From the NCBI RefSeq assembly GCF_058153355.1, contig NZ_CM177019.1: a stretch of 64,000 bases of DNA, one strand, 5' to 3'. The notes beneath the pieces were generated by a model. That model worked only from the letters and a program-made list of their open reading frames with translations, was not told the DNA's origin and made no database searches. Each line of letters opens with the position of its first letter. Position 1 is the first letter of the stretch. The position numbers and the translations under genes were made by a program. This document shows, in pieces, positions 18,882-51,760 of this stretch.

Positions 18882-19037
18882 AGATAGTCGAATGGTGGGG
18901 AAAAGTCACTCGAAATACGTATGAGATGACGAATGCCACACTTTGCGTCTTATTCCTCCGACGTAGAGTCGTTTACGCAGCAAGCGCGGAGTATGTCATC
19001 AGGGTCAAGAATTGAAATTGAGAGATGCCTGAATAGC

Positions 19038-19064
19038 AAAAAAGCGCCTTTAGGGCGCTTTTTT
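19038..19064 (-). terminator. bidirectional rho-independent terminator at end of tRNA array
   Basis: A6-GCGCC-tttag-GGCGC-T6 hairpin. Confidence 0.7.
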
Positions 19065-19068
19065 ACAT

Positions 19069-19190
19069 TGGTGGGTCGTGCAGGATGACTCACTTCGCTC
19101 GCCCTTCGGGCCGTCGCCGCAAGCGGCTCCGTTGTTTCGCTGCGCTCTACTCGAACCTGCAGCAGGTTCGAATCTTTGAATATCGCAGAT
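19069..19190 (-). other. decayed tRNA-Lys remnant (3'-terminal 17 nt plus degenerate T-arm-like fragment)
   Basis: tggtgggtcgtgcagga (complement of tRNA-Lys 3' end incl. CCA) followed by non-tRNA sequence containing ctcgaacctgcagcaggttcgaatc; flanked on both sides by identical terminator hairpins. Confidence 0.5.
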
Positions 19191-19193
19191 AGC

Positions 19194-19220
19194 AAAAAAG
19201 CGCCTTTAGGGCGCTTTTTT
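19194..19220 (-). terminator. second copy of the same terminator hairpin immediately 3' of tRNA-Lys 19225-19300
   Basis: Identical A6-GCGCC-tttag-GGCGC-T6. Confidence 0.65.
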
Positions 19221-19224
19221 ACAT

Positions 19225-19300
19225 TGGTGGGTCGTGCAGGATTCGAACCTGCGACCAATTGATTAAAAGTCAACTGCTCTACCAACTGAGCTAACGACCC
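19225..19300 (-). tRNA. tRNA-Lys (anticodon UUU)
   Basis: 76-nt exact reverse-complement match to the E. coli tRNA-Lys sequence as recalled, CCA encoded. Confidence 0.9.
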
Positions 19301-19348
19301 ATACGGGTGTTACCTGAATGATTTCTACTCGGGACCAATCTTTAATAT

Positions 19349-19419
19349 TGGTGGATCGTGCAGGATGACTCGCTTCGCTCGCCCTACGGGCCGTTGCTGG
19401 CGCAACGTTATCCTTCACG
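19349..19419 (-). repeat. spacer repeat unit beginning with a tRNA-Lys 3'-end mimic (one mismatch)
   Basis: tggtggatcgtgcagga + tgactcgcttcgctcgccctacgggccgttgctggcgcaacgttatccttcacg; near-identical to the copy at 19841-19913. Confidence 0.7.
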
Positions 19420-19446
19420 CTTAACATCTGAGTTTGATGTTAAAAC

Positions 19447-19522
19447 TGGTGGGTCGTGCAGGATTCGAACCTGCGACCAATTGATTAAAAGTCAACTGCT
19501 CTACCAACTGAGCTAACGACCC
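19447..19522 (-). tRNA. tRNA-Lys (anticodon UUU)
   Basis: 76-nt exact match to the tRNA-Lys copy at 19225-19300. Confidence 0.9.
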
Positions 19523-19525
19523 GAG

Positions 19526-19601
19526 TGGTGGGTGATGACGGGATCGAACCGCCGACCCCCTCCTTGTAAGGGAGGTGCTCTCCCAGCTGAGCTAATCACC
19601 C
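19526..19601 (-). tRNA. tRNA-Val (anticodon UAC)
   Basis: 76-nt reverse-complement match to E. coli tRNA-Val(UAC) as recalled; 3-nt spacer to the adjacent tRNA-Lys. Confidence 0.9.
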
Positions 19602-19651
19602 GATACTGCGCTGGATACTACAAACTACTTCCACCGAACCCACCGCATTAG

Positions 19652-19727
19652 TGGTGGGTCGTGCAGGATTCGAACCTGCGACCAATTGATTAAAAGTCAA
19701 CTGCTCTACCAACTGAGCTAACGACCC
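19652..19727 (-). tRNA. tRNA-Lys (anticodon UUU)
   Basis: 76-nt exact match to the other tRNA-Lys copies. Confidence 0.9.
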
Positions 19728-19729
19728 GG

Positions 19730-19805
19730 TGGTGGGTGATGACGGGATCGAACCGCCGACCCCCTCCTTGTAAGGGAGGTGCTCTCCCAGCTGAGCTAAT
19801 CACCC
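19730..19805 (-). tRNA. tRNA-Val (anticodon UAC)
   Basis: 76-nt match identical to copy at 19526-19601; 2-nt spacer to tRNA-Lys. Confidence 0.9.
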
Positions 19806-19840
19806 GATACTACGCTGGATACTACAACTAACTAGGTTAG

Positions 19841-19913
19841 TGGTGGGTCGTGCAGGATGACTCGACTTCGTCTCGCCCTTCGGGCCGTTGCTGACGCAAC
19901 GTTATCCTTCACG
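19841..19913 (-). repeat. spacer repeat unit beginning with an exact tRNA-Lys 3'-end mimic
   Basis: tggtgggtcgtgcagga + tgactcgacttcgtctcgcccttcgggccgttgctgacgcaacgttatccttcacg. Confidence 0.7.
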
Positions 19914-19940
19914 TTTTACTACCGCTTCCACCTTAGCGAT

Positions 19941-20016
19941 TGGTGGGTCGTGCAGGATTCGAACCTGCGACCAATTGATTAAAAGTCAACTGCTCTACCA
20001 ACTGAGCTAACGACCC
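19941..20016 (-). tRNA. lysT: tRNA-Lys (anticodon UUU), first gene of the array
   Basis: 76-nt exact match; promoter-proximal position. Confidence 0.85.
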
Positions 20017-20180
20017 ACTTTTTCGTTGCTTTCGGTTTGTTTGATATCCCGTGGCAACGGCGGCATATATTACTGATTTCAGACTTGAGCGCAACAAAAA
20101 TTTCGATGTAGATCACTCAACTGCTTATGATTCGCACGACACGACCAGAAATAATGCGACTTCTGGTCGTGTGTTATGCA

Positions 20181-20972
20181 TTACATCGCGTTCAGACGTT
20201 TTTGCGCCTGTTTTGCGCCATCAGTCCCAGGGTATTTACTGATAACCTGCTGATATACAGCTTTCGCTTTTGCGGTGTCACCTTTGTCCTGCATGATGAC
20301 GCCGACTTTAAACATCGCATCTGCAGCCTTCGGTGACTTCGGATAGTTTTTCACTACCGAAGCAAAATAGTACGCCGCATCATCTTTTTTACCCTTGTTG
20401 TAGTTTAACTGACCCAGCCAATAATTGGCGTTTGGCAGATAAGTTGAATCAGGGTAATTTTTGATGAAATTCTGAAATGCCACCATTGCGTCATCCTGGC
20501 GGGATTTATCCTGCACCAGCGCAATAGCTGCATTGTAATCCGTGTTTGCATCACCGCTTTTCACCGGCGCGCCAGCATTCGCAGTACCAGCATCAGCTGT
20601 CGGCGTCGTTGATGCCGCCGCACCGCTTTGATCGCCGCTGGTTGATTGCGCCGCTGCACCACCGCTGCTGAGGCTATCGATCTGCAACAGGATCTGCTTT
20701 TGCCGCTCCACGACCTGATTCAGTTGATACTGATTTTCCTGAATCTGACCACGCAGGGAATCAATATCGGATTGATTATCAGAGAGTTGTTGCTGGAGTT
20801 GGGTTAAAAGCTGGCTGTGAGCATTAGAAATACGCTCAAGTTGAGTGACGCGGTCTTCGACCGAGCCTGAGCCGACACTACTGATTGGTGCCTGAGCAAA
20901 AGCGGCCCAGGGGGCCGCTATACCAACCAGTAACGACAGACTCAATAGTTGATGTCTGAAGTTACTGCTCAT
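20181..20972 (-). CDS. cpoB: cell-division coordinator CpoB (YbgF), TPR protein
   Basis: 263-aa ORF with signal peptide, coiled-coil and TPR-like repeats; downstream of pal. Confidence 0.9.
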   Translation of the reverse strand: MSSNFRHQLLSLSLLVGIAAPWAAFAQAPISSVGSGSVEDRVTQLERISNAHSQLLTQLQQQLSDNQSDIDSLRGQIQENQYQLNQVVERQKQILLQIDSLSSGGAAAQSTSGDQSGAAASTTPTADAGTANAGAPVKSGDANTDYNAAIALVQDKSRQDDAMVAFQNFIKNYPDSTYLPNANYWLGQLNYNKGKKDDAAYYFASVVKNYPKSPKAADAMFKVGVIMQDKGDTAKAKAVYQQVISKYPGTDGAKQAQKRLNAM

Positions 20973-20981
20973 GCAATTCTC

Positions 20982-21527
<546 letters not shown>

Positions 21528-47084: not shown

Positions 47085-47255
47085 TGTCGGTCACCCGTAG
47101 GCCTGATAAGACGCGCAAGCGTCGCATCAGGCATCGCGTGTCGGATGCGGCGCGAGCGCCTTATCCGACCTACATTGATGGTCCCCGTAGGCCTGATAAG
47201 ACGCGTCAGCGTCGCATCAGGCTTCAATTGCCGGAGAAAGCGATAATGCCTCATC
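47085..47255. repeat. REP/BIME cluster between sucB and sucC
   Basis: Alternating GC-rich palindromes cgtaggcctgataagacgcg...cgtcgcatcaggc and gtcggatgcggcgcgagcgccttatccgacctaca. Confidence 0.6.
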
Positions 47256-51475: not shown

Positions 51476-51760
51476 GATTTCCTGCATTTCTTTTGTAGGC
51501 CGGATAAGGCGTTCACGCCGCATCCGGCGCTGTTTGCCTGATGCGACGCTTGCGCGTCTTATCAGGCCTACGATTCCTGCATTTCTTTTGTAGGCCGGAT
51601 AACGCATTCACGCCGCATCCGGCACTGGTTGCCTGATGCGACGCTTGCGCGTCTTATCAGGCCTACGATTTCTGCATTTCTTTTGTAGGCCGGATAAGGC
51701 GTTCACGCCGCATCCGGCACTGGTTGCCTGATGCGACGCTTGTGCGTCTTATCAGGCCTG
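51476..51760. repeat. three tandem ~95-bp REP/BIME units between sdhB and sucA
   Basis: Unit gatttctgcatttcttttgtaggccggataaggcgttcacgccgcatccggcactggttgcctgatgcgacgcttgcgcgtcttatcaggcctac repeated three times with a few substitutions. Confidence 0.7.

Follow-up and report, generated by a model that had tools for sequence, protein, structure and literature searches.

A probable six-gene allele of the Escherichia coli lysT tRNA operon and its tRNA-linked repeats

The tRNA array at positions 19038-20016 of the window (the 64,000-nucleotide stretch of DNA analysed here) lies on the minus strand and comprises four tRNA-Lys(UUU) genes and two tRNA-Val(UAC) genes, together with three repeat units and a pair of identical terminators. 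The explanation that we favour, as a whole with high confidence, is that E. coli lysT, the lysine/valine tRNA operon, is present here as an allele of six genes (Lys-Val-Lys-Val-Lys-Lys); that the allele is the seven-gene allele of strain N96 minus one tRNA-Lys-plus-spacer unit; and that the repeat units are dispensable for making tRNAs, as strain GmF052, with seven tRNA genes in its array and no such unit, indicates. Earlier work has already described the locus, its repeat family and the ending with two terminators; the layout with six genes is one recombinant allele among many.

The array sits between cpoB and nadA and is oriented as both of them are; the flanking genes tolB-pal-cpoB and nadA-pnuC-zitB match E. 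coli at 98-99%. ARAGORN found exactly four tRNA-Lys(UUU) and two tRNA-Val(UAC) genes, all on the minus strand, and the Rfam tRNA matches agree, which confirms the six intact tRNAs recognised in the first-pass annotation. Weak Rfam matches to Plastid-ycf2, YrlA, STnc50, isrK, AgrB and SSRC8_2 were far under threshold, overlapped tRNAs or terminators, and were rejected. An ORF search of the array gave short frames only, crossing tRNAs and repeat units, and we rejected a coding role for the lysT units because they have no counterpart of the tpr ORF of tyrT.

In transcript order (all features are on the minus strand), the first gene is the lysT equivalent, a tRNA-Lys(UUU) at 19941-20016 that scores 79.2 bits against the Rfam tRNA model and is identical to K-12 tRNA-Lys. 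It is followed by the first spacer-type repeat, TLR 1 (19841-19940), which runs from CGTGAAGGAT through three hairpins to the 18 nt that copy the 3' end of tRNA-Lys (19841-19858), and then by 35 nt of spacer (19806-19840) that the alignment identifies as the entire Lys-Val spacer of alleles without a repeat. The valT-equivalent tRNA-Val(UAC) occupies 19730-19805 and the lysW-equivalent tRNA-Lys(UUU), also placed by the K-12 alignment, lies 2 nt beyond it (19652-19727). The next Lys-Val spacer is only 50 nt long and has no repeat unit, as was first noted from the sequence (19602-19651); in the alignment with K-12 and N96, it matches what follows the repeat in the lysW-valZ spacer of K-12. Beyond it are the valZ-equivalent tRNA-Val(UAC) (19526-19601), the lysY-equivalent tRNA-Lys(UUU) (19447-19522), the second spacer-type repeat, TLR 3 (19349-19446), a further 48 nt of spacer defined by alignment (19301-19348) and the last tRNA-Lys(UUU) gene (19225-19300), a lysZ/lysQ fusion from which the intervening 208-bp unit is absent.

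The last gene is followed by a 27-nt terminator hairpin, T1 (19194-19220; AAAAAAGCGCCCUAAAGGCGCUUUUUU; RNAfold -19.1 kcal/mol, z -6.2; identical in K-12), then by a 125-nt unit bearing the 18-nt copy, the terminal repeat (19069-19193), and finally by T2 (19038-19064), which is identical to T1. The terminal repeat is of a T-arm type: a hairpin formed by the T-arm half in inverted and direct orientation, an insert of ~64 nt, and the 18-nt copy at 19069-19086. Its T-arm-like fragment, GCAGGTTCGA at 19151-19160, is identical to tRNA-Lys at 10/10 positions and has an inverted copy at 19162-19171. There is a perfect direct repeat of 54 nt at 19033-19086 and 19189-19242, and folding and repeat search together bear out the earlier description of duplicated terminators around a 3'-end mimic and a T-arm-like fragment. 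Both T1 and T2 have the form of intrinsic terminators, a GCGCC-CUAAA-GGCGC hairpin followed by U6, and T1 is taken as the Rho-independent terminator of the operon in K-12 (PMC4176162). A consensus promoter and terminator scan of the array returned no minus-strand site and missed both, probably because their A and U tracts pair and lengthen the stem; its plus-strand terminator-like calls are the antisense of repeat hairpins and were discarded. Read by eye, a putative operon promoter lies at 20058-20094 (TTGCGC at 20094-20089, a 16-nt spacer and TAATAT at 20072-20067), with 7/12 consensus matches, a G+C-rich discriminator, ATGCCGCCG, after TAATAT and an A/T-rich stretch ahead of it; the scan did not call it. 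We infer that its position would fit a 5' leader on the first tRNA, as in K-12 (PMC4176162).

The 18-nt sequence ATCCTGCACGACCCACCA occurs seven times at one mismatch or fewer, four times within tRNA-Lys genes and three times outside them (19841-19858; 19349-19366, with one mismatch; and 19069-19086), and no copy is expected by chance (100 shuffles). Identity to the tRNA-Lys 3' end is 18/18 in two of the repeat units and 17/18 in the third, TLR 3, whose variant copy (ATCCTGCACGATCCACCA, 19349-19366) is common to strain N96. The 3'-end mimics of the first-pass annotation are therefore real, and one nucleotide longer than the 17 that it counted; its conserved unit of ~70 nt likewise stands, as ~72 nt common to both long spacers (135 and 146 nt) and ending in the copy. 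Units of this kind are tRNA-linked repeats (TLRs), the Rfam family RtT (RF00391). All three exceed the gathering score of 45 bits: 60.6 for TLR 1 (19841-20009; exact 18-mer), 54.2 for TLR 3 (19349-19515) and 48.0 for the terminal unit, with which the model aligns end to end (19069-19191, model positions 1-130); in TLR 1 and TLR 3 the 5' part of the model falls on the upstream tRNA, so that only the 3' ~70 nt of the spacer units is truly homologous. Each of the three lies 3' of a tRNA-Lys gene, the spacer units at 0 nt and the terminal unit with the 27-nt terminator between. The units are not new. The NCBI pipeline annotates TLRs in many E. coli genomes, and the terminal unit appears as 'RtT sRNA' in N96 and others. 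The family has long been known; it was reportedly first described by Egan and Landy in 1978, and Rudd is said to have treated it in 1999. TLRs are a repeat family of the Enterobacterales found in tRNA and rRNA operons (PMC8144298). Among the matches listed, Lys-type TLRs are spread across that order, a range to be read as a lower bound (Salmonella was not sampled). A TLR resembles the 3' part of a tRNA that is interrupted within the T loop by a structured insert of ~64 nt, and Photorhabdus has complete interrupted tRNA-Lys copies in tandem arrays of at least 14 units.

RNAfold gives free energies of -35.5 kcal/mol (z -2.5) for TLR 1, whose 3'-end copy takes part in the closing helix, and of -32.7 kcal/mol (z -3.1) for TLR 3. 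The predicted fold of a TLR has three hairpins and, enclosing them, a helix formed by the 3'-end copy and a complementary stretch upstream. In a type-restricted alignment of 27 diverse spacer-type TLRs, 98.8% of cells were paired and six pairs had changed on both sides, a level reached by 0/500 shuffles and compared with just 27-47% in slid controls. Hairpins H2, H3 and H4, detected sequence by sequence, have many different stem sequences. Among Lys-type units the closing helix does not vary; covariation is seen only when types are compared, the strands following tRNA identity: CGTGAAGGAT/ATCCTGCACG for Lys and GGGGAAGGAT/ATCCTTCCCC for Tyr. A MAFFT alignment of 77 TLRs of mixed type, analysed with RNAalifold, misaligned hairpins of unequal length and gave a weak and partly wrong consensus, and was set aside. 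Order-wide conservation and covariation argue that TLRs are more than junk.

In K-12 the lysT transcript is ~1100 nt long; RNase P cuts it from the 3' end, and RNase E cuts the long spacers only as a backup (PMC4176162). Going by the K-12 literature, one precursor would start at the promoter just 3' of cpoB and end mainly at T1; the spacer TLRs must be transcribed within it, and the terminal TLR would be transcribed only through read-through at T1. The 3'-end copies might be processing signals or decoys, as the first-pass annotation also allowed; they would steer or titrate RNase P, RNase E, 3' exonucleases or the CCA-adding enzyme, and in this way affect how the array matures or give rise to a regulatory small RNA. 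We consider this reading, taken as a whole, rather unlikely. It draws on the spread of Lys-type TLRs across the Enterobacterales among the matches listed, on compensatory changes that keep the three hairpins, and on the way in which the helix sequestering the copy changes along with tRNA identity, Lys or Tyr. The dual-terminator TLR RNAs of rrnA, rrnB and rrnD show in vitro binding to Hfq and to CsrA, and recognition of the repeat by RNase E is the proposed determinant of their 3' end (PMC8144298). However, there are natural alleles of E. coli in which some or all TLRs are missing, which shows that TLRs are not required; K-12 processing is explained without them, by RNase P and exonucleases (PMC4176162); folding predicts a paired rather than an exposed copy; and the 19 tRNA-operon TLRs score <0.01 as CsrA binders, in a family without known function (PMC8144298). 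Since the copy is predicted to be base-paired and natural TLR-free alleles exist, an essential role for TLRs in processing is unlikely. TLRs might still have a role at the RNA level, for example as a structured 3' trailer or as a small RNA made by T1 read-through.

In K-12, the tyrT-tyrV 178-bp repeats, the source of rtT RNA (rttR), are, like the terminal lysT unit, tandem units placed after the last tRNA, each ending in a tRNA 3' end and variable in copy number (0-2 for the lysT unit). The tyrT and lysT units have inserts with a homologous core (…CGACCCGAAGGGCGA…GAGTA) and share the position of the break in the T-arm. The tyrT units differ in carrying the tRNA-Tyr 3' end, in their length of 178 nt, in having no terminator per unit and in containing the tpr ORF, whereas the terminal lysT unit repeats along with its terminator at a period of 156 nt. 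The RrA, RrB and RrF repeats of rrnA, rrnB and rrnD have the same order as the lysT end: stable-RNA gene, terminator 1, TLR, terminator 2; they end in an 18-nt copy of the upstream RNA 3' end and are transcribed through T1 read-through (PMC8144298). Unlike the TLRs of tRNA operons, which are predicted non-binders, they copy the 5S rRNA 3' end and carry CsrA-binding GGA motifs (PMC8144298). A possible likeness is to 3'ETS-leuZ, an sRNA sponge that is a by-product of tRNA-precursor processing with a role of its own (PMC8144298). It has, however, no sequence relation to the lysT TLRs and no 3'-end copy. At the attachment sites of tRNA-targeting integrases, the tRNA 3' part from the T loop onwards is directly repeated around the inserted DNA, and precise loss is possible. 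The lysT TLRs may be compared with such sites in that a tRNA 3' direct repeat from the T loop flanks an insert and would allow its precise loss, but their inserts are only ~64-100 nt long, encode no integrase, are homologous across tRNA loci and have a conserved RNA fold.

When 14 E. coli alleles were mapped for gene order, spacers and TLR slots, gene number ranged from five to eight and each TLR slot was either filled or empty. The spacer lengths with and without a TLR were, slot by slot, 135/35, 149/51, 146/48 and 132/33 nt, and there were zero, one or two copies of the terminal TLR. The short second Lys-Val spacer seen in the window is present in 10 of the 14; the 35-nt TLR-free spacer of the first slot occurs in strains 132, GmF052, AVS0096 and 2014C-3655, and the 48-nt TLR-free spacer of the TLR 3 slot in GmF052, GN06489, AVS0096 and GPEC1042. 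A comparison of array length across strains, as the first-pass annotation had proposed, sorted a spread sample of 59 complete genomes, searched with the flanks alone, into 16 length classes.

The array is 96.5% identical to that of K-12 and 99.5% identical to that of N96, which is also the nearest relative by flanks (99.8%). It has six genes rather than the seven of K-12 and one spacer without a TLR, differences that are allelic within the species and do not mark another locus. Two segments account for them. One tRNA-Lys with a spacer of the lysZ-lysQ type, 208 bp, is absent relative to both K-12 and N96, and the boundary of this gap falls within identical 76-nt tRNA-Lys genes, which fits recombination between repeats. 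One TLR (98-99 nt; a 98+1-nt gap against K-12) is precisely absent: the remaining 50-nt spacer is the post-copy part of a 149-nt K-12 spacer, the TLR having been removed exactly between the tRNA 3' end and the 18-nt copy. The K-12 operon has five TLRs and the window allele three, one with a point mutation; otherwise nothing essential differs.

Recombination between direct repeats explains this variation. Every TLR is flanked by such repeats, with the genuine 3' end of the tRNA on one side and its copy of 18 nt on the other. Around the terminal unit the repeat is the 54 nt that include the terminator, and the tRNA-Lys genes are perfect repeats of 76 nt. Through homologous recombination, or through slippage during replication, TLRs and gene-plus-spacer units are removed or added, so that the array is highly polymorphic in E. 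coli. In common with many strains, the window allele has lost the second Lys-Val TLR, and it keeps the T1-TLR-T2 ending of the K-12 type. Parsimony is the ground on which each change is read as a loss or a gain.

Six genes might instead be the ancestral number, the seven-gene layout of K-12 having arisen by duplication of a Lys unit. Duplications do occur in a locus whose gene number varies from five to eight: the eight-gene allele of GN06489 has its Lys-48 unit duplicated. We nevertheless find this order of events improbable, as the missing lysZ-lysQ-type spacer (132 or 33 nt) is no copy of any other spacer and is present in the divergent strains K-12, N96, GmF052, KSC1031 and A3176, N96 being the nearest relative by flanks. 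Six-gene alleles also stand on differing TLR backgrounds, which suggests independent deletions.

The six-gene array could also be an artefact, a short-read assembly collapse of two adjacent tRNA-Lys units. The missing 208 bp are flanked by identical 76-nt repeats, and the exact architecture of the array, co-linear at high identity, has no match among 5,426 complete genomes of E. coli (95.5%, with gaps, for the best match over the full length), so it is either a rare allele or, less likely, a collapse. But the missing spacer is unique sequence, and a collapse would normally leave a conflict rather than delete it; the same order of six genes and spacers is found in the finished genomes of 1409, the O157-type strain 132 and 2014C-3655; and the rest of the array is 99.5% identical to N96. 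We consider an assembly error very unlikely.

That the unit between the terminators is the decayed seventh tRNA gene of K-12, as its two tRNA-Lys pieces (GCAGGTTCGA and the last 18 nt) and the complete, interrupted tRNA-Lys copies that are its homologues in Photorhabdus might suggest, is scarcely tenable and, for the difference between seven genes and six, is refuted by K-12, in which the unit and both identical terminators lie 3' of an intact seventh gene, as they do in N96 and in other seven-gene strains; moreover, the six-gene strains 1409 and 132 have no terminal unit, A3176 has two copies, and a clean 208-bp gap elsewhere in the array explains the missing gene. The terminal segment is therefore the reference layout and not a decayed gene. 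The first-pass annotation's proposal of loss or decay by recombination between repeats accordingly divides: loss of a unit holds, decay of a terminal copy does not, and the alternative that it had named, a layout identical to the reference, is true of the ending but not of the six-gene arrangement. Only a version set in deep time survives, in which the TLR probably derives from a tRNA copy, given the complete interrupted copies of Photorhabdus.

TLRs may, we tentatively suggest, be relics of tRNA gene copies that were interrupted always at one position in the T loop (…GGTTCGA, insert, ATCC…), the interrupting module being, on the same suggestion, a homologous three-hairpin element of ~62-64 nt. 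In E. coli the terminal lysT unit and the tyrT repeats would retain only the insert together with the T-arm half before it and the 18 nt at the end, and the spacer units only the insert and a strand complementary to the copy. At the loci examined around Lys-type TLRs we found no TLR linked to any tRNA other than Lys, so the generality of the T-loop split is based on the Lys and Tyr units only. An origin by T-loop interruption was not found in the searchable literature, a search that did not extend to the 1978 and 1999 papers.

Our findings describe the lysT array as a hypervariable locus of E. coli in which a gene number of five to eight means that tRNA-Lys gene dosage differs between strains. 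Its natural TLR-free alleles are ready-made controls for TLR function. If the relic reading is true, the module would be either a T-loop-targeted insertion or a structured RNA grafted on a tRNA acceptor/T-arm scaffold, and the split point shared by the Lys and Tyr units would record either separate insertions, each of them site-specific, or ongoing conversion by the tRNA next to the unit. The T-loop split, the covarying closing helix and the Photorhabdus copies together give a concrete, testable model for the origin of the TLR family.

The locus on the minus strand at 19038-20016 of the window is the lysT operon. Its six tRNA genes (19225-20016) were identified by ARAGORN, with which the Rfam tRNA model agrees: four encode tRNA-Lys(UUU) (19941-20016, 19652-19727, 19447-19522 and 19225-19300) and two tRNA-Val(UAC) (19730-19805 and 19526-19601), all on the minus strand. 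In transcript order, with distances in nucleotides, the array reads Lys-135-Val-2-Lys-50-Val-3-Lys-146-Lys-4-terminator-129-terminator; its flanks are the E. coli tolB-pal-cpoB and nadA-pnuC-zitB genes, which are matched at 98-99% identity in nearly every one of the 5,426 complete E. coli genomes. The two terminators (T1, 19194-19220; T2, 19038-19064) are identical, fold at -19.1 kcal/mol each and are part, together with a copy of the tRNA 3' end, of a perfect 54-nt direct repeat. A simple terminator scan reported neither of these strong hairpins; the likely cause is that the A6 and U6 tracts on either side pair with each other, so that the stem is followed by no unpaired U tract. Three additional copies of the last 18 nt of tRNA-Lys, ATCCTGCACGACCCACCA, are present outside the genes, where none is expected by chance: those at 19841-19858 and 19069-19086 are exact and that at 19349-19366 (minus strand) has one mismatch. 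The mismatch, C to T (ATCCTGCACGATCCACCA), also occurs in strain N96 but not in K-12; conversion therefore does not always keep the copies identical to the tRNA. A T-arm-like fragment, GCAGGTTCGA, is found at 19151-19160, adjoined by an inverted copy. Every element described in the first-pass annotation, from the six genes and 3'-end copies to the twin terminators and T-arm-like fragment, was confirmed. Elsewhere in the window, the CpoB_ybgF_thermometer (Rfam RF02782; 142 bits) is found upstream of cpoB at 20943-21081 (minus strand), as expected for a tol-pal-cpoB region. Four matches to naRNA4 (RF02564), at 51498-51758 (plus strand) and 47100-47170 (minus strand), include a tandem run of three spaced by about 95 nt and resemble a REP-type intergenic repeat cluster.

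The repeat units are members of an already known family, the tRNA-linked repeats (TLRs; Rfam RtT, RF00391). All three score above the gathering score of 45 (60.6, 54.2 and 48.0 bits); the full length of the model aligns to the terminal unit, which NCBI's pipeline labels 'RtT sRNA' in N96 and other genomes. According to PMC8144298, Egan and Landy reported the first TLRs in 1978 and Rudd compiled a catalogue of them in 1999. [quoted passage not shown] Three rRNA operons have a terminator-TLR-terminator ending like that of lysT, with a TLR that is reached by read-through transcription (PMC8144298). The terminal segment had been taken for a decayed tRNA gene that would account for the seventh gene of K-12, but K-12 itself has an identical terminator-129 nt-terminator with the same 18-nt copy after lysQ, so this segment belongs to the reference layout and is not the missing gene.

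The gene array does depart from the reference, so that the earlier interpretation is partly supported: one unit is missing, probably through a repeat-mediated change. Alignment of all spacers showed that the 146-nt Lys-Lys spacer is of the lysY-lysZ type and that 208 bp are absent, made up of one tRNA-Lys and a spacer of the lysZ-lysQ type. The 50-nt Lys-Val spacer, correctly seen to lack a repeat unit, is the K-12 lysW-valZ spacer minus its TLR: it begins exactly at the sequence that follows the 18-nt copy in K-12, so that the boundaries of the missing TLR are exactly the true 3' end of the tRNA and the copy of it. Pairwise alignment with K-12 (96.5% identity) gave gaps of 98+1, 208 and 1 nt. 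N96 is the nearest genome by its flanks (99.8%, flank-only query); its array aligns at 99.5% identity with a 208-bp gap at a tRNA-Lys gene edge, whose exact position is ambiguous because the gene is a 76-nt perfect repeat, and a 1-nt indel. The third tRNA-Lys of N96, annotated as 73 nt, shows a single-base difference from the other copies in its 3' part and is a variant or slightly damaged member of an otherwise identical family. Strain 1409 has the same six-gene array without the terminal TLR (98.5% identity; a 156-bp gap covering terminal TLR and terminator, and a 1-nt indel). The window's architecture is one step from each of the N96 and 1409 types, and was not found co-linear at high identity among the 5,426 complete E. 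coli genomes. We favour a deletion in the window over a duplication on the K-12 side, because the missing spacer is a unique sequence and is present both in divergent strains and in the nearest relative. Collapse of the repeats during assembly is unlikely, since finished genomes have the same six-gene order.

Among E. coli strains the lysT array is hypervariable. When 1.5 kb of each flank alone was used to query a spread sample of 59 complete genomes, 16 different array lengths were found, none of them that of the window, and about half of the 59 carried an annotated RtT at the locus. Among 14 E. coli alleles of the cpoB-nadA interval, all TLR slots occurred in both forms (135/35, 149/51, 146/48 and 132/33 nt with and without the TLR), the terminal TLR-plus-terminator unit was present in 0, 1 or 2 copies, and tRNA genes numbered from five (AVS0096) to eight (GN06489); the gene dosage of tRNA-Lys(UUU) therefore differs between strains. 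This variation would be explained most simply by repeated events of recombination, or of slippage, between direct repeats of 18, 54 and 76 nt.

Rather than a free decoy, the 3'-end copy is probably one strand of a helix in a conserved RNA structure, as judged from the predicted closing helix, the pairing statistics and the variety of stems. For the two spacer TLRs of the window the fold z-scores are -2.5 and -3.1, and the copy AUCCUGCACG is predicted to pair with CGUGAAGGAU, forming a helix that encloses three hairpins, with ACCCACCA left over at the 3' end. In an alignment of 27 diverse spacer-type TLRs from many genera 98.8% of cells were paired, with both-sided changes in six pairs, a level reached by none of 500 shuffles and compared with 27-47% in slid controls. 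Stem sequences of hairpins H2, H3 and H4 are many and varied; the closing helix is invariant among Lys-type units, and both of its strands have another sequence in the tyrT units (GGGGAAGGAT/ATCCTTCCCC). In K-12 the operon transcript of about 1100 nt has its 3' end at T1; RNase P takes off the terminator and then cleaves 5' of each tRNA in the 3' to 5' direction, while exonucleases remove the long 3' trailers (the TLR spacers), and RNase E cleaves these only without RNase P (PMC4176162). The window's allele would be transcribed and processed likewise. Natural TLR-free alleles, such as that of GmF052, in which all seven genes are present with zero TLRs, show that TLRs are dispensable for making the tRNAs.

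A scan of one genome per species with GAGTNATCCTGCACGACCCACCA gave, among the matches listed, members across the Enterobacterales, including Citrobacter, Enterobacter, Klebsiella, Pluralibacter, Edwardsiella, Pectobacterium, Dickeya, Erwinia, Pantoea, Serratia and Photorhabdus. Lys/Val arrays of the lysT and valU types in these genomes have internal and terminal TLRs at varying positions. The valU-type operons (Val-Val-Val-Lys) of E. coli and many genera also end in tRNA-Lys, followed by one to three Lys-type TLRs at 137-138 nt (L053, L020, L023, L035, L043, L060 and other comparison loci), which fits the reported identity of the lysV and lysQ terminators (PMC4176162). In Photorhabdus, a tandem series of 174-175-nt units, at least 14 in number, lies downstream of two intact tRNA-Lys genes (P. 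caribbeanensis, L017, 5425-~8050, plus strand; also L076, L075, L130 and L015-L016). Each unit consists of the usual 35-nt spacer and a complete tRNA-Lys copy with a 64-nt insert in its T loop (GGTTCGA, insert, ATCCTGCACGACCCACCA), the insert being the RtT/TLR core; these copies look like pseudogenes because several have substitutions that disrupt the acceptor stem. The terminal unit of the window shows the same split point: it keeps GCAGGTTCGA, the insert and the last 18 nt, so that the final 28 nt of tRNA-Lys are present with a break where the Photorhabdus copies have theirs, and the inverted T-arm half just upstream of the direct half forms an 11-bp hairpin with it (19151-19171). The 178-bp tyrT repeats of K-12, downstream of tyrV, are split in the same way but with tRNA-Tyr, so that both have the cognate T-stem 5' strand plus TTCGA, a homologous insert, and ATCC to CCA; the position is identical in the two tRNA types. 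We did not find an origin of TLRs from such interrupted tRNA copies stated in the searchable literature, which excludes the two founding TLR papers. The split point shared by the Photorhabdus units and the lysT and tyrT units of E. coli suggests that the source of TLRs was tRNA copies into whose T loop an insert came at one fixed position.
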